A stretch of DNA of 64,000 nucleotides, from the NCBI GenBank assembly GCA_964005815.1, contig CAXFSR010000060.1:8559-72558 (forward strand), given 5' to 3'. The notes beneath the pieces are model-generated. The model had not been told where the DNA came from, searched no databases, and worked only from the letters and a program-made list of their open reading frames with translations. The stretch is from an uncultured Nitrospinaceae bacterium. GTDB taxonomy: Bacteria > UBA8248. This document shows positions 9,852 through 62,797 of this stretch, one piece after another. A program made the position numbers and the translations under genes. How positions within the stretch are numbered: the stretch's first letter is position 1; each line of letters opens with the position of its first letter.

Positions 9852-10361
9852 CTATGAATCTATTCTTTTCTTAGCAAGCACAATTGCACCAATCATGGCG
9901 GCTAACAAAAGAATAGAAACTACTTCGAACGGAAAAACAAATTTCGTATACAAAACGCTTCCCAATGCTTCTACATTTCCAGGGGTTGCTCCTAACTTCC
10001 AAGGCCATACTTTCATTGCGGGGAAAACTCCCTTACCAAGAACAGACCAAATTTCGAAACCCAAAATTAACACAATTAGAATCGCAAAAAATCGTTGTCT
10101 GTGCCATTGACGAATTCGTACTGCAACCTGAACATTCATTAACATAATCGAGAATAGGTACAGAACCATAATACCACCAGAATAAATAAGAACTTGAACA
10201 GCCGCAAGGAATTCAGCTCCAGCTAAGACAAAAAGTCCTGCCAAGAAGAAGAATGACAAAACTAATAAAAGAGCTGCATGAATTACATTAGACCTTGTAA
10301 TCATGAACAAAGATGTAATCACTATACCGGCAGAAAAAAGATAGAAAAATGGCAGTTCCAA
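9852..10361 (-). CDS. nuoJ: NADH-quinone oxidoreductase subunit J (operon 2)
   Basis: QVLIYSGGIMVL, FPFEVVSILLL.AMIGA. Confidence 0.95.
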   Translation of the reverse strand: MELPFFYLFSAGIVITSLFMITRSNVIHAALLLVLSFFFLAGLFVLAGAEFLAAVQVLIYSGGIMVLYLFSIMLMNVQVAVRIRQWHRQRFFAILIVLILGFEIWSVLGKGVFPAMKVWPWKLGATPGNVEALGSVLYTKFVFPFEVVSILLLAAMIGAIVLAKKRIDS

Positions 10362-10377
10362 ATGTAGCTCCTAAAAC

Positions 10378-11349
10378 TTATAAGAAAAGATACTTAATCA
10401 AACCAGTTAGAAAAATATTAATGAGTACAAGAGGAAACATAAATTTCCAACCAACACGCATCAATTGATCATATCGATATCTAGGCAATGTAGCTCTAAG
10501 CCAAATAAAAACAAAAATCATAGCGGCTAGCTTTAGCACAAACCATACAAAACCTGGTAAAGGAATTCCAGGAATTCCCATCCAACCACCAAAAAACAAC
10601 GTAATTCCAACGGTTGAAACAACCATAATATTTGCATACTCAGCTAGAAAGAAAAATGCGAACTTCATTCCACTGTATTCTGTATGAAAACCAGAAACGA
10701 GTTCCGTCTCAGCTTCAGGCAAATCAAAAGGGACACGATTAGTTTCCGCTAAAGCAGCAATGAAGAATACTATAAAAGCCAACGGTTGCGAGAATACAAA
10801 CCAACCTTCGGACTGTGCTTCAACAATTTTTTGCATATTTAGTGAACCCGCAAGCATCAAAGGACCGATGAGAGCAAAACCGAGAAAAATTTCGTAACTC
10901 AACATTTGCGCAGCACTTCTCAATGCACCTAGTAGACTATACTTACTGTTTGATGCCCAACCAGCCATAACAACTCCAAAAACACCTAGAGAACTTATAG
11001 CTAGAATCAAAAATAATCCAATATTTACTTGGGTAATATAGAAATTTTCACTAAAAGGTAAAACTGAATATACTACAAACGCGGGGACTAAAACCATGAT
11101 AGGAGCAAGGACAAAAACAACTTTGTCTGATTTTGCAGGAATTATATCTTCTTTCAAGAAAAGCTTAAGTCCATCGGCAATAGGCTGTAAAAGACCGTGC
11201 CAGCCTACTCGCATTGGACCCAATCGCATTTGTATGTGAGCAATAATTTTTCTCTCCAGATAGGTCAAATAAGCAACCACTAGAGAAACAACTAAAAGTA
11301 CTACTGCAATTTTAATAAACGCTATTAATGCCTCTGTTGCAATATCCAA
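10378..11349 (-). CDS. nuoH: NADH-quinone oxidoreductase subunit H (operon 2)
   Basis: [37 protein letters not shown]. Confidence 0.95.
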
Positions 11350-11370
11350 TGAAATAAACTCCCAAACAAA

Positions 11371-12513
11371 TTATCTATCACATTCCCCAAGTACGATATC
11401 TATGCTTCCAATAACGGCAACAACATCTGCAAGTAGACCTCCAACACACAATTTTTTTAGAGCAGCTAAATTTATAAATGACGGGGGTCTAATACGCACA
11501 CGATATGGTGTTTCTGTACCATCGCTAACTATATAGAATCCGAATTCTCCTTTAGGGTTTTCAATACTATGATATATTTCACCCTCTGGAGGCTTAATTG
11601 TTCTTGGTGTTTTACAGCTCACAGGTCCATCAGGTAATTGCTCTAAACACTGCTGTATGATTTTCACACTTTGCCTTAATTCTTCAATCCTAACGATATA
11701 CCTGTCATAAATATCTCCATTTTCGCCAGTAGGAACTACAAAATCTAAGTATGGATAGGCCGCATATGGTTTAGCCCTTCTCAAATCATAATTTACTCCA
11801 CTTGCTCTCAAGAGAGGACCAGACAAACCAAAATCAACTGCATCTTCACCTGAAATAACTCCCACTCCACGAGTACGTTGAAGCCAAATACGATTATTAG
11901 TCAAAAGTGTTTCATAATCTTGAATTCGACTGGGGAAAATATCGATAAACTCTTGTGCTAATGTCAAAAACTTTGCTGGAACATCTTGCTCCAATCCGCC
12001 TAAACGGAATGCATTCACAGTTAAACGACCACCAAACGCTGTTTCAAATAAATCAAGTACCATCTCCCTTTCTCTAAAGCACCATAGAAAAACTGTCATT
12101 GCTCCAATATCAAGAGCATGAGTAGCTAACCATAACAAATGACTAGCAATACGAGAAAATTCACCAACCATAGAACGTATATAGTTGGCTCGCATAGGAA
12201 TTTCCCAATCGAAAAATTTTTCAACTGCAGTTACCCATGCCAAATTATTAGAAGGAGCAGCTATATAATCCAAGCGGTCGGTATAAGGTATAAACATGGA
12301 ATAGGTTATATTTTCACCTATTTTTTCGGTACCTCTATGCAGGTATCCAATATCACAATCAAGATCTGTCACTGTTTCACCATCTAGATGAAGAATCACA
12401 CGAAGTACACCATGTGTACTAGGATGCTGGGGTCCCATATTTACTACAAGTTCCTCAGCTCCAGTAACAGTCTTTGTTTGAATTTCTGAATTTGTTTCTT
12501 CTATTTCATACAA
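11371..12513 (-). CDS. nuoD: NADH-quinone oxidoreductase subunit D (operon 2, short form)
   Basis: NMGPQHPSTHGVLR, GYLHRGTEK, DRLDY, ends DIVLGECDR. Confidence 0.95.
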   Translation of the reverse strand: MYEIEETNSEIQTKTVTGAEELVVNMGPQHPSTHGVLRVILHLDGETVTDLDCDIGYLHRGTEKIGENITYSMFIPYTDRLDYIAAPSNNLAWVTAVEKFFDWEIPMRANYIRSMVGEFSRIASHLLWLATHALDIGAMTVFLWCFREREMVLDLFETAFGGRLTVNAFRLGGLEQDVPAKFLTLAQEFIDIFPSRIQDYETLLTNNRIWLQRTRGVGVISGEDAVDFGLSGPLLRASGVNYDLRRAKPYAAYPYLDFVVPTGENGDIYDRYIVRIEELRQSVKIIQQCLEQLPDGPVSCKTPRTIKPPEGEIYHSIENPKGEFGFYIVSDGTETPYRVRIRPPSFINLAALKKLCVGGLLADVVAVIGSIDIVLGECDR

Positions 12514-31156: not shown

Positions 31157-32419
31157 TTGAACCTACAATCATCAAAAAACCAAAAAAAGATATGGTATGG
31201 ATGGATCGTACTTTCAATTGTTTATTTTGTAATGCTCTCCCTCATAGGAACACGTTCAAGCTTTGGTTTTTTCTTTAAACAAATTTCAAACGAATTTTCG
31301 TGGTCACGCGCTGAAACTGCCGCTGCATTTTCAATTGGCATGTTTGCACAATCAGTCTGCTCACTTTTTTCTGGATGGATTTCTGATAGATTAAGCATCC
31401 GTTTAACAATGTCTGCAGGCATTGCTATTTTCGGATTTTCTGTATTATTAGGAAGTCAAATAAATAGTCTTGCTTTTTTTTATCTGACTTACGTTCTTAT
31501 GAATATTGGATTTGCATCCAGTACTTGGGTTGCACAAGTCCCAACTCTTTCTAACTGGTTTGTTACTAAAAGGGGACTTGCTCTAGGAATATCTAGTTCC
31601 GCTCAAGGTACAGCATTTATTTTAAATTTTTTTACTCCAATTCTTATACTTACTCTTGGCTGGAGAATGAGTTACGTTTTTTTTTCTATTTTGATTCTGT
31701 TCATAACACTTCCTCTCGCTGCAATATTTCATCGTGACCATCCCGATCAAAAAAATACAGTTGCCGATCAGCCCTTTTTAGATTCAGAGAATATCCCTAC
31801 AAAAAAAGAAAAATCTTTTCCAAAAAAAATTCTTAATGATCCTGTCAATTTCTTTTCATTTCGTTTTTTCCTTTTTTTAGTTTTATTTCTCCCAATTGCT
31901 TATGTTTTTACTGTTCTTCTAGTTCACTTTCCTGCTCATTTGACAGACCAAGGGATAACGGATCTTTCTTCTGCAGGAATTTTTGCAATCTGGGGGGCAT
32001 CTTTAATTGTCGGATATTTGATCAGTTCAATTTCAGATTATTACGGAAGAACTTCTACATTTTCAACAGGTAGTTTGCTCGGTGTACTTTCAATGTTTTT
32101 AATAGGGAAATACAATATTTCTTTTGAACCATGGGTAATTTATGTGCTCACTATGACAAATGGAATCGCTCTCGGTCTTATACGTTCAACTGCATCAGCA
32201 ATAATGGCAGACCATTTTTCAGGTGAAAAATTTGGCAAAACAAATGGTATCGCAATGTGTCTTTTTGCCATTTTTGGCGGATTTGGTGCATGGTTCACCG
32301 GATTTCTTTACGATTTACACTTGAATTACTACTGGGGATTTTCTATCGCTTCACTAATGTTTATGATATCCGGGGTTTCCGCATTAATTTTATCTACACA
32401 AGAGAAAAAAACTAATTAA
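31157..32419 (+). CDS. MFS transporter (OFA/MCT-like)
   Basis: YGWIV, FSWSRAE, GWISDR, NWFVTKRGLALG; 12 TM. Confidence 0.85.
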   Translation: MNLQSSKNQKKIWYGWIVLSIVYFVMLSLIGTRSSFGFFFKQISNEFSWSRAETAAAFSIGMFAQSVCSLFSGWISDRLSIRLTMSAGIAIFGFSVLLGSQINSLAFFYLTYVLMNIGFASSTWVAQVPTLSNWFVTKRGLALGISSSAQGTAFILNFFTPILILTLGWRMSYVFFSILILFITLPLAAIFHRDHPDQKNTVADQPFLDSENIPTKKEKSFPKKILNDPVNFFSFRFFLFLVLFLPIAYVFTVLLVHFPAHLTDQGITDLSSAGIFAIWGASLIVGYLISSISDYYGRTSTFSTGSLLGVLSMFLIGKYNISFEPWVIYVLTMTNGIALGLIRSTASAIMADHFSGEKFGKTNGIAMCLFAIFGGFGAWFTGFLYDLHLNYYWGFSIASLMFMISGVSALILSTQEKKTN

Positions 32420-33168
32420 TCGAACGCTACCTTTTCATACTCTTCCGGTGTCAATGCATCTGCAACCCCAATCATAGAATCACGAGTAACGAGCCTAGCC
32501 AATGCCTCTTCTCCCAATTCTTCTGTTCCGGCAGGGCGACGAGGTATTACAAGATATCGACAATCAGCATTACTATCTATGACAATCAATTCAATATCTT
32601 CTGGAGGAGTGTAACCCAAATCAAGCAAGGCACCTCTAGGATCCGTAACTGCTTTTGACCGGTATGGGAAACTTTTATACCAGGTAGGAGGTTGTCCAAG
32701 AAGTACTCTTGGATAACAAGAACACAAAGTACAAACAACCATGTAATGCACACTGTCAGTATTTTCAAGAACTATCAATTTATTAACACTGCTTGCTTCT
32801 ATATCTATTTCCATTTCTCCACATGCAGAATGTGCATCAGAAAGAAGACGTTCTTTAAATTCATCGTCAACCCAGGCTCGAGCAACTACCCTAGCACCAG
32901 TAGTTGGAGTTTGAGCATATATTTCCTCCACCGTACGTCGCATTTCATCAGTAGTTACTATTCCCTTCTCTCTCAAAAGATTCAATATTCCAACAACACG
33001 CACCTGAAAATAATCTAGATCATGTTCTACAGGAACAACCTTATCTTCCATGTAAGCTTCATCGGACTTCATTCGAGCATTATGCGATGACAAATCATGA
33101 CTATATGGACTTTCATTGTCATGAGGGTGATTATGGTGATGGCCACTTCCATGGTGGTTATCTGACAT
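32416..33168 (-). CDS. Cobalt-type nitrile hydratase alpha / thiocyanate hydrolase gamma-like subunit
   Basis: VCTLCSCY cobalt motif, GARVVARAW, LVTRDSMIG, His-rich N-terminus. Confidence 0.9.
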   Translation of the reverse strand: MSDNHHGSGHHHNHPHDNESPYSHDLSSHNARMKSDEAYMEDKVVPVEHDLDYFQVRVVGILNLLREKGIVTTDEMRRTVEEIYAQTPTTGARVVARAWVDDEFKERLLSDAHSACGEMEIDIEASSVNKLIVLENTDSVHYMVVCTLCSCYPRVLLGQPPTWYKSFPYRSKAVTDPRGALLDLGYTPPEDIELIVIDSNADCRYLVIPRRPAGTEELGEEALARLVTRDSMIGVADALTPEEYEKVAFD

Positions 33169-33188
33169 TTATTTTCTCCTTAAAGAAA

Positions 33189-33470
33189 CTACAATGCTTC
33201 AATCCAATGATCGTAAATTTCAATGTTCAACTTATCTTTCTTCTCTCCTGGGTTATGTTCCCAAAGATCATTTAAATTAAACTGAACCCAATATAAGTCC
33301 TGAAACGGCTTTCCGTCTCCACCATAAGCAAGGATTTCGGGGTTCTCGTAACTTCCGAAATAACGAATAATCTTCCCAGATTTACCTTTCACATATTCAG
33401 TTGTTCTGTGATGACCTTCGAAATAAGTGTTCTTTATTCGAACCTCTTCACCAATCTCAAATTTTGACAC
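33189..33470 (-). CDS. Stand-alone SH3-like C-terminal domain of nitrile hydratase beta (ScnA-like)
   Basis: FEIGEEVRI, GHHRT.EYVKGKSG, PE..AYG, LYWVQF...DLW, IEIYDHWIE; only 93 aa. Confidence 0.85.
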   Translation of the reverse strand: MSKFEIGEEVRIKNTYFEGHHRTTEYVKGKSGKIIRYFGSYENPEILAYGGDGKPFQDLYWVQFNLNDLWEHNPGEKKDKLNIEIYDHWIEAL

Positions 33471-33544
33471 TTTTACCCCACAAATTTAATTAAAAAAGAA
33501 ATTTAAAATCAGTACAAAAAGAGTACCGAAAGACAAATCTATTT

Positions 33545-34567
33545 TCAAGTAATTTGAAATAGCTTTCGTACATTCTCAACCAAAATCTCATTCTGCTGTT
33601 TCTCTTCCAACTTGCTCATTCCAGGAATTTCGCGACAATTTTCATGGTTAGCCATGTCAGCTGGATAATCGGTACCATACACGACTCTTTCGGAACCCAA
33701 AGTTTTTACGGCAAATTCAAAGGAATCAGCATTATGAATTATCGTATCGTAAAAAAATCTATTAATATATTCTTCTGGGTTCTTAGAACCATGTACTTTT
33801 GGCTCTCTTCTTTCCCCATAACCATGTTCCCAACGTCCACGAATCCAGGGAAGAAAACCACCTAGATGAGAAAGCAAGAAATTAAGATTTGGGAAACGAT
33901 CCAAAACCCCTCCAAAAATCAAACATGCAGCAGCTATAGTTGTATCAAGAGGATTTCCAATGAAATTGCGTAAATAAAAATCCTTGAGTCTATCTGCAGC
34001 ACCCATTGTATCAATTGGATGGATAAAAATAGTAATACCTAAATCTTGCGCTTTTTGCCAAAAAACATCGAGATCAGGATCGTCCAAATTTTTTCCTGCA
34101 ACATTCGAGGCAATCTGTACACCAAGATGCCCGTTGTTTATTGCACGTTCTAATTCTTCTGCTGCTAATTCAGGATCTTGTAGAGGAACTGTCGCCATAC
34201 AGGAAAAATTAGAAGGGTTATCGTTTGAAATTCTAATTAGTGCGTCGTTCATAGATTGAGCAAGATCATGTGTAATCGACTTATCAAGAGAATAAAAAGT
34301 AAGTGACGGAGAAACAGATAGAATTTGTCTACTAACTCCCATACGCTTCATATCTTCTAAACGCAAATCAACTTCATAATACATAGGAGTCAGAATATTT
34401 CTTAATTCCCTACTTTTCCCAAGAACATTACTCTTCGTAACTATCCATTCCTTACCATCCGCATTTTGAACGGTTACAGTATCTCCAAAAGCCTTGTTTC
34501 TAACGTCTTCTAAAAAACCTAAAGGAACAATATGCGTATGAGGATCAATAACCATCTTAAACTCCAA
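33545..34567 (-). CDS. Amidohydrolase-2 family (ACMSD-like decarboxylase/hydratase), paralogue B
   Basis: IDPHTH, FIHP, SHLGG.LP, YGTDYP. Confidence 0.88.
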   Translation of the reverse strand: MEFKMVIDPHTHIVPLGFLEDVRNKAFGDTVTVQNADGKEWIVTKSNVLGKSRELRNILTPMYYEVDLRLEDMKRMGVSRQILSVSPSLTFYSLDKSITHDLAQSMNDALIRISNDNPSNFSCMATVPLQDPELAAEELERAINNGHLGVQIASNVAGKNLDDPDLDVFWQKAQDLGITIFIHPIDTMGAADRLKDFYLRNFIGNPLDTTIAAACLIFGGVLDRFPNLNFLLSHLGGFLPWIRGRWEHGYGERREPKVHGSKNPEEYINRFFYDTIIHNADSFEFAVKTLGSERVVYGTDYPADMANHENCREIPGMSKLEEKQQNEILVENVRKLFQIT

Positions 34568-34581
34568 AGTCTAAAAAGAAA

Positions 34582-35589
34582 TTATATTTTATAAAGTTCC
34601 TTTACATTTCCACACAAGATTTTATCCTGATCTTCATCTGACAATCTTGAAAGGCCAGGAATGTCCTTTGCAGCACCTAAATATCCCATATCAAACGGGT
34701 AATCAGTCCCATATAAAATACGTTCTGACCCTAAAGTGTTTACGGCAAATTCAAAAGAATCGGCATTATGAATTATTGTGTCATAATAAAAATTGTTAAT
34801 ATATTGCTCAGGATTTTTTGCACCATGAACCTTCGGCTCACGTCTTTCTCCATACCCGTGTTCCCAACGACCACGAATCCAAGGAGTAAAACCACCTGTA
34901 TGGGAAACTAAAAATTTAATTTTTGGGAACCTGTCAAAAACACCACCAAAAATTAAACACGCCATGGAAATTGTAGTATCTAAAGGATTACCAATAAAAT
35001 TGCGAAGATAGTAATCTTTAAGACGATCATTTACACCCATAACATCTGAAGGATGAATAAAAACAGGGACGTCTAATTCGCAAGCCTTTGCCCACACAAC
35101 ATCAAGACTAGGATCGTCAAGGTTTGTTCCTGCAACGTTTGATGCTATCTGGCAACCTTTATGTCCATTCTTTACGGCACGATCTAATTCAGTAGCCGCC
35201 GCATCTGGATCTTGCAGCGGAATCTGAGCCATGCAATGAAACTGTTCTGGATATGTCTTGGTCAATTCAGTTAAGGCATCATTTAAGGATGAAGAAATTT
35301 CTTTATTCAACCCAGCATCTAAAGCGTAAAATGTCATGGGAGGAACCACCGATAAAACCTGCATATCGACTCCCATATTCTTCATATCAGAGAGTCTAAG
35401 ATCAACGTCATAAGTTGTTTTTGGTAGAGGATTTTTATGAACTCTTTCCTGTCCCAAAACCGTATTCTTGGTTGTTAGAAATTCCCAGTCTTCTCCTGGT
35501 TCAATAATTACAGAATCACCAAAACTACCTTTTCTTACATCTTCGATAAAACTAGGCGGTGCTATATGGGCATGAGGGTCAATTATCAC
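34582..35589 (-). CDS. Amidohydrolase-2 family (ACMSD-like decarboxylase/hydratase), paralogue A
   Basis: IDPHAH, FIHP, SHTGG.TP, YGTDYPFDM. Confidence 0.88.
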   Translation of the reverse strand: MIIDPHAHIAPPSFIEDVRKGSFGDSVIIEPGEDWEFLTTKNTVLGQERVHKNPLPKTTYDVDLRLSDMKNMGVDMQVLSVVPPMTFYALDAGLNKEISSSLNDALTELTKTYPEQFHCMAQIPLQDPDAAATELDRAVKNGHKGCQIASNVAGTNLDDPSLDVVWAKACELDVPVFIHPSDVMGVNDRLKDYYLRNFIGNPLDTTISMACLIFGGVFDRFPKIKFLVSHTGGFTPWIRGRWEHGYGERREPKVHGAKNPEQYINNFYYDTIIHNADSFEFAVNTLGSERILYGTDYPFDMGYLGAAKDIPGLSRLSDEDQDKILCGNVKELYKI

Positions 35590-55706: not shown

Positions 55707-55991
55707 ATGCCAGACAAATCAGATTTTCGTAAATTTTATCGCGATGCACACAGTTCTGATCTACTAACAGAAAGAGAAAGAATTCTAATAGGTCTCTCGG
55801 TAGCCATCTCGAGAAATTGCCAACCCTGAGTAAACCATCGTCTAGCAGATGCTAGAAAAAAAGAAATATCAGAGGAAACCTTAGATTCTACTTTCAACGT
55901 GGTCTCTGCCGTAATAGGTGGAATAGCTCAAAGCATGAACCAAAGATTCAAGGCATCTCAAAAAACGACTGAAGAAAAAAAACCTACCTAA
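55707..55991 (+). CDS. AhpD/carboxymuconolactone-decarboxylase-like selenoprotein (94 aa; in-frame TGA at 55827-55829 read as Sec)
   Basis: AAGGA SD then ATG; MPDKSDFRKFYRDAHSSDLLTERERILIGLSVAISRNCQP-U-VNHRLADARKKEISEETL...IGG...KKPT*; CxxU at the AhpD CxxC position; absent from the ORF track. Confidence 0.8.
55841..55856 (+). promoter_or_regulatory. Putative bacterial SECIS hairpin
   Basis: TCTAGC-AGAT-GCTAGA perfect 6-bp stem with G in the loop, beginning after an 11-nt spacer from the TGA. Confidence 0.65.
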
Positions 55992-56589
55992 CACCAGATG
56001 GTTTAGGACGTTTTTTTCTATCAGAAATAGCTTTTTTTACTTGGGCAGAACTTTTTCCTTCCAGTTCTATCCCGAATACTTCACCTACACGTGTATGCTT
56101 ATCCATCAGTCTCATGAAATCGATACCATCAATCTCGGCTATTACCATCTCGCAAGTACTAAAAATCTCACACCCTTCAACAAGGTGACCACCAAAACAG
56201 GTTGCCTCAGGCCTTCCCATTGAAATAGTTACATGTGCATGTAAATATGGTTCTCCATTTTCCGTCTGAGTAATGTTTCCACTCATTTGTAAAAGTTCTA
56301 AAGGTCCATTGATAGGAGTAAAAATTCTACATTCATCATTAATAGGGAATGGTTCTGGGAATTTCCACACATTTCTCAATGTAGCTTTTCTAAGACTAGC
56401 CGCTACACTCAAGATCACCCCTGATTTTAATTTTTTTTCTTTACATATCTTTACTGTAGTTCCGAACAAATCATCACCTGGTGCCATTCTCACTGTGAGC
56501 ACTCTGCCGATTTTTCCCTCAGCAACATCATATCTCGGTTTTCGGGTTTTCCAATTGGTTTTATCAAATAACATTTCTTTTTTTGGCAT
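55984..56589 (-). CDS. PPC/DUF296 domain protein
   Basis: RMAPGDDL, LELLQMSGNI, HAHVT, GGHLVEG, CEMVI. Confidence 0.85.
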   Translation of the reverse strand: MPKKEMLFDKTNWKTRKPRYDVAEGKIGRVLTVRMAPGDDLFGTTVKICKEKKLKSGVILSVAASLRKATLRNVWKFPEPFPINDECRIFTPINGPLELLQMSGNITQTENGEPYLHAHVTISMGRPEATCFGGHLVEGCEIFSTCEMVIAEIDGIDFMRLMDKHTRVGEVFGIELEGKSSAQVKKAISDRKKRPKPSGVR

Positions 56590-56666: not shown

Positions 56667-57950
56667 TCATGTTTTTTTTTCAAATCGTATTATTCCGTTT
56701 ATAACAGTACATGTAACAACAGAACGTTTGTCAAAAAGATGTTCTATATCTAAATATTTATAATCTTCAGGTATTTCCACAACGGTGAAATCGGCAACTC
56801 CGCCCGGCATGATTGATCCGACTCCTTCGTTTTCAAATCCCAAAGCTTTTGAACCAGAGAGTGTACAATACATAAGCAGTTCACTTGCTTCGATAGAACT
56901 GTCCTCTTCTCTTAAGGCTATTGCCTCTTCCAAAACAGAAAGAGAAGGAGAACTTGCAAGACTGTCTGTCCCAAGACATAACATTACTCCTTGACTCCTC
57001 ATTTGCATAATATCTGCTATTTGATGTTCAAAGAATGATGCAGAACGTGGACAAATACAAACATGGACTCCGTTTGTACGTAATAATCGCCAATCATTTT
57101 CATCCGTCTGATTACAATGTACAACAAGATCAATTTTTCGGAGAATCCCTTTTTGATTAAAATACTCTATAGGACTACAACCAAAAGGCTCAAAAAAATC
57201 TATATCGATTTTCAATTTTTTGAACATGTCCTGAAAACCACCTTCTCCAGTCTCTAGAAATTGCAACTCATCCGGACTTTCAAGAAGATGGGTTGCTACT
57301 TTCCAGTTATTTAAACTCCCATAAGATACCGTTCTCTTGTAGAGTTCAGAAGATGTAGAATAAGGTGAATGAGGACTAAGACCGTTTCGAACAAATTCGT
57401 TCGATTCTCCTTCGTAATTCTTAGATTCAGAAATTTCTTCCATTTTTTTATTGAAAATAATTTCAGCTTCCCTATCATTAATGCCTAAAAATTCATGAAA
57501 AATTACTCCCCTCATTCCTGCATCGACGATAGCCGTCTTACTTTCACCGGAGACACTAATATCTCCAACACAAGTTACACCGGAAGAAATACTATTTGCT
57601 GTTCCGATCCTTGAGGAGGAGAGAAATAAATGACTTGGCCACTCCCTTATTTGTGATACTAAATTTGGAATCCATTCCGAAAGTTTCGATGGTGAAATTT
57701 GCATACCGCTTAATTCAAGATGTGTATGTGAATTCACCAATCCTGGAATAAGAATCGAATTTTTGAAGTGTCTCTCAGTTACAAAAGTACTGTGAGGACG
57801 AATAAATTCTTCTTCCCCTACCGCTACAACTTTCCCATTTGAAGTTAAAACCGCTCCATTTCTTATAGGCAAATCACTTACCGGGCAAACTAGATCGGCT
57901 GTCCATAGTTGAAATCTATCTTTAGTGTTATCCAAACTTGATTCTTTCAT
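56667..57950 (-). CDS. Amidohydrolase, probable aminodeoxyfutalosine deaminase (MqnF-like)
   Basis: PGLVNSHTHLE, PHSPYS, HLLES..E, VHC, GTDSLAS; directly downstream of mqnC. Confidence 0.75.
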   Translation of the reverse strand: MKESSLDNTKDRFQLWTADLVCPVSDLPIRNGAVLTSNGKVVAVGEEEFIRPHSTFVTERHFKNSILIPGLVNSHTHLELSGMQISPSKLSEWIPNLVSQIREWPSHLFLSSSRIGTANSISSGVTCVGDISVSGESKTAIVDAGMRGVIFHEFLGINDREAEIIFNKKMEEISESKNYEGESNEFVRNGLSPHSPYSTSSELYKRTVSYGSLNNWKVATHLLESPDELQFLETGEGGFQDMFKKLKIDIDFFEPFGCSPIEYFNQKGILRKIDLVVHCNQTDENDWRLLRTNGVHVCICPRSASFFEHQIADIMQMRSQGVMLCLGTDSLASSPSLSVLEEAIALREEDSSIEASELLMYCTLSGSKALGFENEGVGSIMPGGVADFTVVEIPEDYKYLDIEHLFDKRSVVTCTVINGIIRFEKKT

Positions 57951-57960
57951 GAAAGAAAAA

Positions 57961-59034
57961 TCAGACTAATTCATAGAAAAAATTTCGTCTTTTCGGCAAA
58001 AAACCAGCATTTTTTGCCATGACACTTAAATCTTCTTCATTCAGGCAATAAGTCGTGCCCGCGGAACTCACGACATTCTCCTCAATCATAGTAGACCCCA
58101 TGTCATTTGCACCATAGTGAAGGGAAAGTTCTCCAATCTTCATTCCTTGAGTGACCCAAGAAGATTGAAAATTTGGAATATTATCTAAAAAAAGTCTGCT
58201 AATGGACAATGTTTTTAAATATTCACTACTGCCTACTGTTGGAACTCTTAGAGTTGCAGAACCGTCATTCTGAAAAGTCCAACAAATAAATGCTGTAAAA
58301 CCTTTCGTTTGGTCCTGCAATTCCCTTAAAGAACTTAAATGTTCAACTCTTTCTTCTAGAGTTTCTACATGACCGAACATCATTGTAGCAGTAGATCGTA
58401 AACCAAGACCGTGTGCGACTCTCATAATTTCGAGCCAACCTTCAGTATTCACCTTTAATTTTGAAATTTTGTTTCGAACTCGATCTACTAAAATTTCCCC
58501 ACCACCTCCTGGAATAGAATCGAGGCCAGACTGGTGCAACCTATTTATAACTACTTCATAAGGCATATCTTCCAACTTAGAAATATGATGAATTTCTGGT
58601 GGACTTAACGCATGTAAATGTATATCAGGATACTCTGTTTTCATCCATGAGAATAAATTTTCATACCATTCTATTCGCAAATCTGGATGGTGTCCTCCTT
58701 GAAGTAGAATTTGCTTTCCTCCCAAAGAATATAATTCATCAATCTTTTCCTTAATCTCTTCTTTTGTCCTTACATATGATTCTGGATGTCCACCTGGAGG
58801 TCGATAGAATGCACAAAATGTACAATAAACATCACACACATTCGTGTAATTTATATTTCGATCTACGCAATAAGTAGCAATCCCTTCGGGATGAAAGGAA
58901 TTTCTGATTTGATCTGCAGCAGCACCCAGTGCAACTAAATCATCACCTTCAAACAAAACAAGACAATCATCTGAAGACAATCTTTCCCCAAGTAAGGTTT
59001 TCTCTATTATCTGATAAAATTTTTTATCTGCCAT
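57961..59034 (-). CDS. mqnC: Cyclic dehypoxanthinyl futalosine synthase (radical SAM)
   Basis: DRNINYTNVCDVYCTFCAF, LLQGG.HP, FICWTFQ, SSWVTQG, EENVVSSAG. Confidence 0.93.
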   Translation of the reverse strand: MADKKFYQIIEKTLLGERLSSDDCLVLFEGDDLVALGAAADQIRNSFHPEGIATYCVDRNINYTNVCDVYCTFCAFYRPPGGHPESYVRTKEEIKEKIDELYSLGGKQILLQGGHHPDLRIEWYENLFSWMKTEYPDIHLHALSPPEIHHISKLEDMPYEVVINRLHQSGLDSIPGGGGEILVDRVRNKISKLKVNTEGWLEIMRVAHGLGLRSTATMMFGHVETLEERVEHLSSLRELQDQTKGFTAFICWTFQNDGSATLRVPTVGSSEYLKTLSISRLFLDNIPNFQSSWVTQGMKIGELSLHYGANDMGSTMIEENVVSSAGTTYCLNEEDLSVMAKNAGFLPKRRNFFYELV

Positions 59035-59099: not shown

Positions 59100-61409
59100 C
59101 TACCCATTGTCTCTAAGTATAATTTCAGGAATTTGATTTCTATACGAAGTGTTCTCTTTTTCAAAAGCATGCGCAATTTGAAATAAATTTTCCTCTTTCC
59201 ATGGACCGGAAACAATTTGCATAGATGTGGGCATCCCAATTTGATCAAATCCCATAGGGGTAACTAAAGCTGGAAATCCTGTAACATTATGAGGAGTTAA
59301 AAACGGTCTGTGTAAATAATTATAAACGAACTCTTCTTTATCTATATTAGCCTTCAGTCCTTCTATTTTTGGAGCAACACAGGGAAGAGCAGGAGAAATA
59401 AGAGCATCAAAGGTTTTAAAAAAATCTTCCATTTCTCTTTGTAAAATTTCACGTTCACGCAAACCACTAACATATTCGTCCGTTGAAATTTTAAAAGACC
59501 AATCAAGACGTTTTAAAATATCTTCCCCATAACCTTTTGGATTTTTTTCAAAAAAGGACCTATGAAATTCTGAAAACTCTGCTCCAGCTATCTTTGGAAA
59601 AATATTCATTACTTTATCAAAATGAGGGAAAGGGATCTCCTCAACAATTCCTCCTAGGCTTTCAAAAACCAAACATGCACTTTGAAAATTCTCTCGAATA
59701 GAAGAATCTACATCGCAATGATTATAAAAATCTGGGCAGATAACAATCCTTTTTCCCTTGATTCCTTGATCAATAGTTAAAGAATATTTTGGAACAGGAA
59801 TATCTCTAGATTTAGAATCCTCTGAATCATACCCTGCCATACTTTCAAGAATTATTGCTATATCTTCTGTACTTCTTGCCATCGGTCCCACATGGTCAAA
59901 GCTTAAAACGTTTGGACAAACTCCTGACAAGCTTACTCTTCCATGAGTAGGTTTAAGACCTACAACACCACAAAAACCTGCAGGAGTTCTTATCGAACCT
60001 CCTGTGTCACTTCCCAAAGAAAAAGCGGTCAAATACGAAGCTACTGCAGCCGCAGAACCACCACTAGAACCCCCTACTATCCTCTCAGTATTCCATGGAT
60101 TTTTAGTGGTACCATAAAATGGATTGATAGTGGTCGAACCTCCGGCAAACTCATGAGTATTCACTTTTCCCAACATAACAGCGCCAGCATCGTAAAGAGA
60201 AGTTATTACAAATGCATCCTTATCAGGGTAATGATCTTTGTGAAAATTCGAACCATTTGTAGTAAGAATATCCTTAGTATTAATTATATCTTTCGCTGCA
60301 AAAGGGATACCGTGCAAAGATCCCCGGAGATTTCCTGAACTTATTTCCTTCTCAGCCTTTTTCGCTTTTTTTAACGCCTCTTTTGCTGTAACGGTCACGT
60401 ATATGTTTAATTTATTATCTATTTTCTCAATTTGTGTTAAAAAAGACTGCGTGAGGTCCAAAGGAGAAATTTCATTTTCTCGAATGAGAGAAGACAAATC
60501 AGCTATCGATTTAAAACAAAGTTGCCCATCTTCTTGAGAATTAGAAGAATTACAAAATTTTGAATCTCCCGATTGATTTTCAGCTACTTCTTTATGGATA
60601 CGAATTTCTGGCACATGTAATTTCCTCGCAATCCATCCTTTTTTAACAAAACCGTCTTTCTGCAAGAAATCGTAATATAAATTTAGACCTTCTTCCTCTT
60701 TTTCTCCAACATCGTATAAAATGCAATTTGTTAAATAATTATGAATCTCCTCTTCTTTTATAAATGAATTCTCTCTCGCAAGAACAGAAATAATTTCGTC
60801 TAGATTCTTAATTCCTTCTTCTTTTGATTTAATTAATTCACTCGCTATATCAGAATTTCCTTTACCTTCAGGAAAAACCCAAACTGCATACACAAAAGGA
60901 AGATTTGTAAATGCCGTCCATTCATCTCCTAAGTCCACCACATAAAAATCTCCTGGAGGCTCTCTTAATGCATTGTCCCCAATTAAGAGAAATGCATCTA
61001 ATTCTTTATCTTCCTTTGGAGGGATTTTTGGATTTACAGAAACGAACTTTGGTTCTACTCCCCATCTGTGTTTCAGCAGAACTCGTAACATATTACTAGC
61101 AGAAAGAGACCACGAATCAAGGCCTACCACCTGCAATGTATCTGCCGGTTTTCTACAATAAAGGCGTATGCTCTCTACTGGACCATTACTTACAATACCG
61201 ATTTTAGGCACAAATCTGGAATTTTTTAATCCAAACATGGAAAAAGAAGAGACCAATGCACCATCTAATTTATTATCTTTTAAAAGTGTAGCTAGCTCAC
61301 TAGGAGGGAAACTAACAATCTGAATTTTTTCATTATTTTCTAGATTGTATGTAAGAGGTCTTGCATTAATGAAGGGAACTGTTCCGAGTTTTAAGCATGA
61401 ACTGCCCAT
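59100..61409 (-). CDS. mqnA: Fusion: MqnA chorismate dehydratase (aa ~1-258) + amidase-signature amidase (aa ~297-769)
   Basis: N-part PFINARPL, GPVES, LLIGDNAL, DLGDEW...T.LPFVYAVW; C-part LHGIPFAAKD, GGSSGGSAAA, GSDTGGSIRTPA..CG.VGLKPT.G. Confidence 0.88.
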   Translation of the reverse strand: MGSSCLKLGTVPFINARPLTYNLENNEKIQIVSFPPSELATLLKDNKLDGALVSSFSMFGLKNSRFVPKIGIVSNGPVESIRLYCRKPADTLQVVGLDSWSLSASNMLRVLLKHRWGVEPKFVSVNPKIPPKEDKELDAFLLIGDNALREPPGDFYVVDLGDEWTAFTNLPFVYAVWVFPEGKGNSDIASELIKSKEEGIKNLDEIISVLARENSFIKEEEIHNYLTNCILYDVGEKEEEGLNLYYDFLQKDGFVKKGWIARKLHVPEIRIHKEVAENQSGDSKFCNSSNSQEDGQLCFKSIADLSSLIRENEISPLDLTQSFLTQIEKIDNKLNIYVTVTAKEALKKAKKAEKEISSGNLRGSLHGIPFAAKDIINTKDILTTNGSNFHKDHYPDKDAFVITSLYDAGAVMLGKVNTHEFAGGSTTINPFYGTTKNPWNTERIVGGSSGGSAAAVASYLTAFSLGSDTGGSIRTPAGFCGVVGLKPTHGRVSLSGVCPNVLSFDHVGPMARSTEDIAIILESMAGYDSEDSKSRDIPVPKYSLTIDQGIKGKRIVICPDFYNHCDVDSSIRENFQSACLVFESLGGIVEEIPFPHFDKVMNIFPKIAGAEFSEFHRSFFEKNPKGYGEDILKRLDWSFKISTDEYVSGLREREILQREMEDFFKTFDALISPALPCVAPKIEGLKANIDKEEFVYNYLHRPFLTPHNVTGFPALVTPMGFDQIGMPTSMQIVSGPWKEENLFQIAHAFEKENTSYRNQIPEIILRDNG

Positions 61410-62530
61410 TTCTCTCCTTCGCGAATCACCTCGTTATAGAGGGTATCTCTTTCTACTGGCTCTCTACCAACTTCTCTGATAATATTTCGTATATAGTCAA
61501 CCGTCAATTCTGATGGTGTCTGAGCTCCTGCCATATGATAAATTTTCTCTTGAACAACGGTTCCATCTAAATCGTTTACCCCATATTGCTGACTTAATTG
61601 CGCGATAGGAAGACCAACCATTATCCAATAAGCCTTAATATGAGGAATGTTATCCAACAAAAGTCTGCTAACAGCATAATTTTTTAAGTCTAAAATTCCA
61701 CCGGATGGACGAACATCATTCATTTGAGTATTTTCTGGGTGAAAAGACAATGGAATAAAGGTAGTAAAACCATTTGTCTCATCCTGTAAATCTCGAAGTT
61801 GTAAAATATGATCCACTCTGTCGGCATCGGTCTCTATATGTCCATATAACATAGTACAAGTACTTGATAAACCCATATTGTGAGCGATGCGGTGCACTTC
61901 CAACCAATCCTCTGCAGACTGTTTCCCCTTACAAATTTCAGATCTTGTTGGCTCTGCAAAGATTTCGGCACCTCCCCCTGTAAGAGAGCCAAGTCCTGCT
62001 CGAACTAGTGTTTCCAAGGTTTCTTCTATACTCATCTTTGCAATATGATCCGCGATCCAACGTATTTCAGTAGCAGTAAAACATTTTAGATGTAGATGGG
62101 GATGAATTTCCTTGATCCCGTGAATCATTTCAAGATAATAATCAAATGGCAGATCAGGATGGAGTCCTCCTACCATATGAAATTCGGTGCGGCCTTTTCC
62201 AAGTTTTTCTGCCTGTTTAAAGATTTCTTCTAATGAGTACGCGTATGCATCTTGCTGTCCTTCTTTTTTTCCAAATGCACAGAATTTACAGGCTTTCCAC
62301 AAGACACAAACATTTGAATAATTAATATGGCTATTCACATTGTAAAAAGTTCGGTTACCATGAAGTCGTTCACGAACCTTGTTCGCTAAATATCCAATCG
62401 CATTAATATCATTTGAAGCATATAAAATTTGACCATCTTCAAAAGACAATCTATCTCCAGCATTAACCTTCTCCAAAACTTCGGACAGAGAAGTATCACG
62501 TAGATATTTTTCATAATATTGATTGTTCAA
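61391..62530 (-). CDS. mqnE: Aminofutalosine synthase (radical SAM)
   Basis: EFHMVGGLHP, GGGAEIF, TMLYGHIET, HIKAYWIM, DLDGTV.QEKIYHMAGA. Confidence 0.93.
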   Translation of the reverse strand: MNNQYYEKYLRDTSLSEVLEKVNAGDRLSFEDGQILYASNDINAIGYLANKVRERLHGNRTFYNVNSHINYSNVCVLWKACKFCAFGKKEGQQDAYAYSLEEIFKQAEKLGKGRTEFHMVGGLHPDLPFDYYLEMIHGIKEIHPHLHLKCFTATEIRWIADHIAKMSIEETLETLVRAGLGSLTGGGAEIFAEPTRSEICKGKQSAEDWLEVHRIAHNMGLSSTCTMLYGHIETDADRVDHILQLRDLQDETNGFTTFIPLSFHPENTQMNDVRPSGGILDLKNYAVSRLLLDNIPHIKAYWIMVGLPIAQLSQQYGVNDLDGTVVQEKIYHMAGAQTPSELTVDYIRNIIREVGREPVERDTLYNEVIREGEKWAVHA

Positions 62531-62551: not shown

Positions 62552-62797
62552 TCAAGGTCCGGGTACATAATTAGGACCATTATTTTCTTTTCTCTCTCTT
62601 CTTTTCGCTCTGACCTTTTTCTTCGAAGAAAATGTCTTTAAACGGTCCATATTTTCTTCTCCATCATTTCTAGTCCCAGCTTCGTAAACGTTACTCTTTT
62701 CAAAACTCATCTGACCAAAAATTCGCTTAAGATTCCTCTCAACAGGACTATCAGGAACATTTTCGCTATCTTCTTTTCCTAAGCTCTCTTTTTTCAA
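62552..62797 (-). CDS. Small charged hypothetical protein
   Basis: TTG start behind AAGGA; fills the gap in frame before mqnE; no recognisable motif. Confidence 0.5.
   Translation of the reverse strand: MKKESLGKEDSENVPDSPVERNLKRIFGQMSFEKSNVYEAGTRNDGEENMDRLKTFSSKKKVRAKRRERKENNGPNYVPGP

Follow-up and report, generated by a model that had tools for sequence, protein, structure and literature searches.

An in-frame fusion of chorismate dehydratase and an amidase in the menaquinone gene row of Nitrospinota: probably two independent enzymes on one polypeptide

The menaquinone gene row of an uncultured Nitrospinaceae bacterium contains an open reading frame (ORF) of 769 amino acids in which MqnA, the chorismate dehydratase of the futalosine pathway, is joined in frame to a complete amidase. 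We analysed this gene in a stretch of 64,000 nucleotides, referred to here as the window (assembly GCA_964005815.1, contig CAXFSR010000060.1, positions 8,559 to 72,558 of the forward strand), and across 51 genomes of the phylum Nitrospinota, which were sorted into families f1 to f4 and genera g1 to g9, the window genome being G000 of genus g1. We think, with a probability of about 0.62, that the product is a bifunctional protein derived from merged neighbouring genes, that its two activities are independent, that the amidase comes from an import-and-hydrolyse module, and that no new step of quinone synthesis is involved. No description of an MqnA-amidase fusion was found in the literature searched, which did not cover subscription journals; public records carry the architecture under the names 'chorismate dehydratase', 'MqnA/MqnD/SBP family protein' or 'GatA'. 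The features of the gene, given in window coordinates, are as follows.

59100..61409, minus strand: fused mqnA-amidase gene, ORF of 769 amino acids with an ATG start and two Pfam domains; full-length relatives are 50-89% identical
60660..61394, minus strand: MqnA (chorismate dehydratase) domain, residues 6-250, PF02621
60612..60614, minus strand: in-frame GTG codon 266, preceded by GAGGA at 8-nt spacing; treated as a chance motif, not conserved as an internal start
60531..60602, minus strand: predicted disordered core of the linker, residues 270-293, with a predicted local distance difference test score (pLDDT) below 50; the wider variable stretch is residues 258-297
59184..60458, minus strand: amidase-signature domain, residues 318-742 (the fold begins near residue 291), PF01425, AlphaFold pLDDT above 90
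60291..60293, minus strand: predicted catalytic Lys373, aligned to the triad lysine of GatA
60063..60065, minus strand: predicted cis-Ser449, in GGSSGGS, by alignment to the GatA triad
59994..59996, minus strand: predicted nucleophile Ser472, in DTGGSIR, by alignment to the GatA triad

The first-pass annotation of this DNA had described the ORF as a full MqnA domain followed by an amidase-signature domain with a complete triad, and the Pfam matches and the triad residues agree with that description. The N-terminal 250 residues matched VitK2_biosynth (PF02621) at 158.9 bits, against a cut-off of 26, over profile positions 1-251 of 252. NCBIfam gave no family for this half, and MqnA was told apart from MqnD by means of solved structures: all nine matches were MqnA proteins, the best being those of Streptomyces coelicolor (SCO4506, PDB 2NXO/7AHR) and Deinococcus radiodurans (2I6E) together with 6O9A (E 3e-14 to 9e-12). 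Asn15 and Ser80 of the fused protein align with the S. coelicolor residues Asn17 and Ser86, which are described as absolutely conserved and required for activity in the study of that enzyme (PMC9672406, seen in part). This pair, which orients the enolpyruvyl carboxylate, was kept in all 22 MqnA-bearing rows of the alignment, and the adjacency to mqnE is a further likeness to known MqnA. Because the genome has just one further PF02621 gene (contig C16), and this gene matches MqnD, namely TTHA1568 (2czl/3a3u) and AF1704, the fused gene carries the sole MqnA of the organism. Known MqnA proteins are, judging by chain length, single-domain enzymes of about 270-300 amino acids, whereas the fused protein has about 500 additional C-terminal residues that make up a complete amidase.

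The C-terminal half matched Amidase (PF01425) at 382.5 bits, against a cut-off of 27, over profile positions 1-444 of 445. The Gly/Ser-rich amidase signature GGSSGGSAAAVA was found in the translation, and all 54 aligned amidase rows keep the Lys/cis-Ser/Ser triad. The closest solved relative is GatA (PDB 3H0L, E 3.9e-74; see also 2DF4), with which this half shares the fold family and the triad. We nevertheless rejected GatA as its identity: the TIGR00132 score of 343.4 bits is below the cut-off of 481.1, the true gatA of the genome (643 bits with the same model) adjoins gatB on contig C3, and neither gatB nor gatC lies near the fused gene, the neighbours of which are mqnE and mqnC. Next best among the NCBIfam families was AtzE (1-carboxybiuret hydrolase), which likewise has an anionic amide as its substrate and includes a solved relative (PDB 6C62, E 6e-55). 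It was also rejected, with scores of 327 bits against a cut-off of 461 (NF006631) and 311.8 against 425.75 (TIGR02715); no AtzG-like small partner was seen with the fused protein. The GatA of Staphylococcus aureus is reported to bind glutamine via Tyr309, Arg358 and Asp425 (bioRxiv 10.1101/733030, seen in part). In the corresponding columns, the genome's own GatA has Y-R-D, whereas the fused protein has Phe604, Arg634 and Arg701, so that Tyr is replaced by Phe and the Asp that binds the amino group of glutamine by Arg. This F-R-R pocket was present in 54 of the 68 rows of the amidase clade, in fused and stand-alone proteins alike. Because the amine-binding Asp is replaced by Arg, glutamine would be an unlikely substrate, and the pocket suggests an anionic amide. 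The genome has eight full-length amidase-signature genes. It also has another member of this amidase clade, encoded on its own (G000:C63:62164-63558), which is 47% identical, sits on a long branch and has the pocket I-A-K and not F-R-R.

A single ORF could be misleading if an assembly error hid a stop codon, or if the amidase were made mainly as a separate protein from GTG codon 266; we regard this explanation as extremely unlikely. Three independent marine metagenome studies yielded contigs that span the linker (X2 record 7, 59947-61500; X3 record 11, 59859-61500; X6 record 17, 60302-60668), and they do so with substitutions only, without an insertion, a deletion or a stop codon. The identical 769-aa protein is recorded on nine contigs and an 89%-identical protein of the same length on eight, and the frame is open through both domains in 30 of the 51 Nitrospinota genomes, all of them in family f1. 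Because the frame is open in so many genomes and independent contigs bridge the linker, the fusion is not an assembly error. The first-pass annotation had named sequence support in the linker and fused or adjacent genes in relatives as the places to look, and both bear the fusion out. Its suggestion that the amidase may also be translated separately fared less well. The GAGGA-8 nt-GTG motif on which it was based is present in the sequence, but the codon reads GTA in G045 and ATT in G044, two genomes of the same genus, GAGGA is also gone in G044, and in one metagenome strain a C-to-T change at 60612 converts GTG to GTA. Moreover, Shine-Dalgarno-plus-start motifs were found at 17 of 853 in-frame start-type codons in the long ORFs of the window (15,705 amino acids), which amounts to about 0.8 expected per 769-aa ORF. 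Because the motif is not conserved and is expected at this frequency, we treated it as a chance occurrence. One metatranscriptome contig (X18) matched positions 59151-59398 at 100% identity, too short a match to demonstrate that the fusion is transcribed or to locate a start.

Counted from the GW end of MqnA to the L of the LCF motif at the N terminus of the amidase, the linker has 40 residues. Its length varied from 31 to 40 among 20 fused proteins, and its sequence is not conserved and cannot be aligned between genera. Within the genus, MqnA had a dN/dS of 0.07-0.10 and the amidase one of 0.11-0.14, against 0.24-1.0 in the linker; both domains are under purifying selection and the linker is not. 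An AlphaFold2 model built from a 56-row alignment had a mean pLDDT of 91.4 and a predicted template modelling score (pTM) of 0.65, and consists of two well-defined bodies with no confident mutual arrangement. It is this pTM value, together with a predicted disordered linker of 24 residues, that bears on whether there is a fixed interface or channel between the two sites. Linkage of the two domains in independent lineages, from which a Rosetta-stone argument would draw, was not found, the linkage being confined to family f1 of one phylum.

The first-pass annotation had placed the fused gene between mqnE and mqnC, and both neighbours scored above the cut-offs of their families. These two genes and two others make up the rest of the conserved mqn row.

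61391..62530, minus strand: mqnE (aminofutalosine synthase), TIGR03700 488.7 bits, cut-off 434.55
57961..59034, minus strand: mqnC (cyclic dehypoxanthinyl futalosine synthase), TIGR03699 484.2 bits, cut-off 428.1
56667..57950, minus strand: aminofutalosine-deaminase-like amidohydrolase, Pfam Amidohydro_1; the best NCBIfam match, NF006269, gave 184.6 bits, below the cut-off of 320
55984..56589, minus strand: PCC (DUF296) domain protein of 201 amino acids, PF03479 80.4 bits, last gene of the row

The upstream gene, mqnE, overlaps the fused start by 19 bases at its 3' end, and mqnC follows 65 bases downstream of the fused gene.

The fused state was found in 4 of 4 genomes of g1, 21 of 23 of g3, 3 of 4 of g2, and in the single genomes of g7 and g8. 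Within these genera, the genomes in which no fusion was found either are incompletely assembled or are missing the entire locus, and G017 has no MqnA match at all. Fused database proteins labelled 'Tectomicrobia' turned out to be the fused proteins of genomes of this phylum (P0017 from G010, P0019 from G012 and P0020 from G041). In g9 the genes are split, the order being mqnE, a stand-alone mqnA of 268 amino acids, a 260-aa LmtA/ICMT-like membrane methyltransferase and a 472-aa amidase ortholog, with unrelated genes before mqnC. In g4 the amidase is preceded, at a contig edge, by the last 42 residues of MqnA; in f2 MqnA and the amidase ortholog lie on separate contigs; f3 has MqnA alone and no amidase ortholog; and in f4 no amidase ortholog was found, the matches being GatA-like at 40% identity or less. 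Genus g6, which includes a 98%-complete single-contig genome, has no amidase ortholog and keeps mqnE, mqnA, mqnC, the deaminase and the PCC gene. Because g6 retains its mqn genes, the amidase is dispensable for their retention. The gene order in g6 is mqnE, mqnA, a 345-aa gene, a 99-aa ORF, nadA, nadC, mqnC, the deaminase and PCC. The 99-aa ORF repeats MqnA residues 209-262, approximately, and ends where the linker would start, and the arrangement looks like an insertion with a duplicated mqnA 3' end. The 345-aa gene (L117/G040 10041-11378) is lysine-rich and has no Pfam or NCBIfam match. The slot after mqnA is thus filled by differing, unrelated genes across genera. A locus of g3 (L185 11271-14641) has two long ORFs of 523 and 536 amino acids between the fused gene and mqnC; they have no Pfam match and lie in high-GC DNA, and they may or may not be genes.

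Relatives of the amidase outside the phylum place it in a different setting. A metagenome scan with patterns from the C-terminal half of the amidase recovered 61 ortholog loci. Ten of these were Nitrospinota-type: L120-L123 were fused, L129, L133 and L144 split, L135 cut upstream and L131 g9-like, and L166, truncated at the end of its contig, was identical to the fused protein of g2. The other 51 loci encoded a stand-alone amidase of 43-55% identity, the lowest values belonging to contig-cut pieces, and there was no MqnA, MqnE or MqnC match on their contigs. Forty of these 51 amidases were flanked by parts of an ATP-binding cassette (ABC) system, the components being a binding protein (SBP_bac_1), a pair of permeases nearest to UgpA/UgpE and an ATPase of the UgpC/MalK type in convergent orientation; the 11 loci without an importer were mostly on contigs of 2-5 kb. 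The names on close stand-alone proteins were Methylomirabilota and Rokubacteria. The 473-aa amidases of such soil bacteria, encoded in Ugp-like importer operons, resemble the fused amidase in identity (50-58%), in clade and in the F-R-R pocket, and differ from it in having neither an MqnA domain nor mqn genes on their contigs. A separate scan of genome contigs with patterns from the whole amidase, which are family-wide motifs, gave at least 79 loci that were generic amidases and GatA at 31-49% identity; two of them, L026 and L028, reached 49% as N-terminal halves only.

The importer was also found next to the fusion itself. Downstream of the fused gene, g2 has a convergent ATPase (72% identical to the soil ATPase), between one and three binding proteins (59-75%) and a permease pair (76-83%). 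In G010 (L183/L166), three tandem paralogous SBP_bac_1 genes lie by one permease pair next to the fused gene, which suggests several related substrates. At L181, the g2 locus that reaches far enough, an ICMT-like methyltransferase comes after the importer genes. The LmtA/ICMT-like membrane O-methyltransferase (L110 10493-11275 in g9; L181 3656-4495 and 330-1058 in g2) scored 219 bits with TIGR04571, below the cut-off of 325; it was absent from the 51 soil stand-alone loci, and a tblastn search of the window genome gave no match.

A careful IQ-TREE analysis of 57 amidase rows united all amidases of fused and split genes with the stand-alone ones from soil in one clade, in which the soil forms nest among the mqn-linked ones, and the g2 fused domains grouped with the soil clade at a support of 100/99; quick trees agreed. 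When the 20 mqn-linked rows were constrained to stay together against the 21 others, the log-likelihood fell by 85 units (approximately unbiased (AU) test, p-AU 0.0034), for a group that was chosen after the tree had been seen. From the tree and the AU result it would follow that the amidase moved, together with its importer, between Nitrospinota and soil bacteria, and the stand-alone forms indicate that the amidase can work without MqnA.

On this basis we propose that the gene encodes two independent enzymes on a flexible tether. The N-terminal domain would supply the futalosine route to menaquinone with 3-enolpyruvyl-benzoate, made from chorismate by dehydration. The C-terminal domain would be an active Ser-cisSer-Lys amidase of a subfamily otherwise encoded with a Ugp-like ABC importer, and it may hydrolyse a small anionic amide, bearing a carboxylate or a phosphate, with release of ammonia for nitrogen assimilation. 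In the common ancestor of a single Nitrospinota family, the amidase, with or without the importer, would have arrived immediately after mqnA; the mqnA stop codon would then have been lost and the two frames merged, and the marine small-genome genera may have retained the fused amidase and lost the importer. The substrate class, the nitrogen-scavenging role and the order of the evolutionary events are what we infer. Two ideas of the first-pass annotation are taken up here. Its caveat that the fusion might stem from a lost stop codon is the best fit to the comparative data, and its view of the amidase as a releaser of ammonia or a salvager of amides fits the association with an ABC importer.

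Several observations weigh against this proposal. The fusion has been retained across a deep divergence (50-55% identity between genera) with the amidase still under purifying selection, and coupling of the two activities would predict the same. The amidase of g9, though split, still lies inside the mqnE-to-mqnC interval. The window genome has no ortholog of the importer: its best binding-protein match was 29% identical (E 2.5e-7), and it belongs to a distant Ugp-like system on contig C35 in which the ATPase is 60%, the permeases 28-30% and the binding protein 29% identical. The group used for the AU test was, as stated, defined after inspection of the tree. Finally, neither an MqnB nor an MTAN could be recognised in the phylum, so that non-canonical enzymes within the mqn row keep some plausibility.

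One could envision two further explanations for the fusion. One is that the amidase is a genuine part of a modified futalosine pathway, in which it would process a pathway intermediate with an amide group, or a quinone-ring precursor imported as an amide, or help to replace nucleoside cleavage. The in-frame fusion with the first enzyme of the pathway in 30 of 51 genomes, the purifying selection on the amidase, the two pocket arginines, a possible binding site for a dicarboxylate (a chorismate derivative, for example), and the failure of MqnB to exceed its cut-off in any of the genomes, with MTAP as the only PNP_UDP_1 protein of the window genome, would all be in keeping with it. We consider it improbable, however, since g6 lacks the amidase and still has the mqn genes, the same F-R-R pocket occurs in stand-alone relatives from importer operons with no mqn genes nearby, and the linker is predicted to be disordered. 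To our knowledge, no futalosine intermediate has an amide bond and the pathway has no amidase step, and we know of no Ser-cisSer-Lys amidase that cleaves N-glycosidic bonds. The suggestion of the first-pass annotation that a modified quinone or a chorismate-derived branch needs the amidase is disfavoured on the same grounds: g6 keeps mqnE, mqnA, mqnC, the deaminase and PCC without it, the amidase is unlinked or absent outside f1, and its nearest relatives stand alone in importer operons without mqn genes. The other explanation is that the amidase body aids MqnA physically or in dosage, through folding, oligomerisation, co-expression or a link between quinone and nitrogen, with no shared chemistry. 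GatA-type amidases depend on small partner proteins, for example GatC and AtzG, and a role of this kind would fit the fact that five genera have long retained the fusion, and the overlap of the mqnE stop with the fused start, by which three activities could be translated together. It is nonetheless unlikely, as MqnA is stand-alone in g6, g9, f2 and f3, AlphaFold gave no confident inter-domain arrangement (pTM 0.65), and the triad and the pocket are kept, which a mere scaffold would not need. We therefore favour two independent activities, joined by the merger of neighbouring genes.

The cleavage of (amino)futalosine is without a recognisable enzyme in this phylum. TIGR03664 (MqnB) was above its cut-off in 0 of the 51 genomes and had no match at all in the window genome, which is 97% complete, and no recognisable MqnB or MTAN-type nucleosidase was found in the set. 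The single PNP_UDP_1 protein of the window genome (G000:C9:46226-46936) is MTAP, with 310 bits for TIGR01694 against a cut-off of 275. A second PNP_UDP_1 copy was present in g9, g4, f2 and f4 and absent in g2, g3, g7, g8 and g6; it was also absent in three of the four g1 genomes, including G000, the fourth, G043, having a second match. We considered whether the absence of MqnB is tied to the fused state and rejected this, as the pattern is not clean (the amidase-less g6 is also without the second copy) and related genomes are not independent. A candidate for the cleavage step is the PCC/DUF296 protein. It is 74-97% identical across related genera and loci, a higher conservation than that of MqnA or the deaminase; the solved structures related to it are annotated only as 'hypothetical' or 'putative DNA-binding' proteins, and no literature linking DUF296/PF03479 with futalosine or menaquinone was found. 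One scenario would combine these elements into a variant futalosine pathway, in which the fused amidase, the deaminase-like amidohydrolase and the PCC/DUF296 protein supply non-canonical chemistry and the two-arginine amidase has an anionic amide as its substrate, so as either to feed the pathway or to clear it; we think this very unlikely.

Two other features of the window should be mentioned. Immediately upstream of mqnE there is a putative ORF of 81 amino acids, rich in Lys, Arg and Glu (62552-62797, minus strand), which is 90-94% identical in two metagenome contigs of the same genus. A nitrile-hydratase-like cluster is placed at 32416-35589 of the window and at G000:C60:41019-41567. In g1, g2, g3 and g9 a distance of 26-53 kb separates it from the fused gene, which is large-scale synteny and no operon link. 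We rejected nitrile hydratase as an explanation of the amidase because the two do not correlate: the alpha subunit is present in 44 of the 51 genomes, among them G040 and five of the seven in f4, and both f4 and G040 are without an amidase ortholog.

The importer association, the g2 arrangement, the comparison with the GatA pocket, the selection figures, the sequence support for the linker and the AU test are new here. For annotation, the result means that such chains carry two enzymes and that the amidase half is not GatA. It also offers a lesson of method, in that a conserved fusion need not imply a shared pathway: here the partner would come from an importer-linked module, and the slot beside mqnA collects unrelated genes. 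The analysis exposes a gap as well, the menaquinone synthesis of the phylum having no recognisable enzyme for nucleoside cleavage. For the marine nitrite oxidisers, the fusion would mean yet another amidase in a 2.2-Mb genome with a set of eight full-length paralogs, which fits the scavenging of organic nitrogen.

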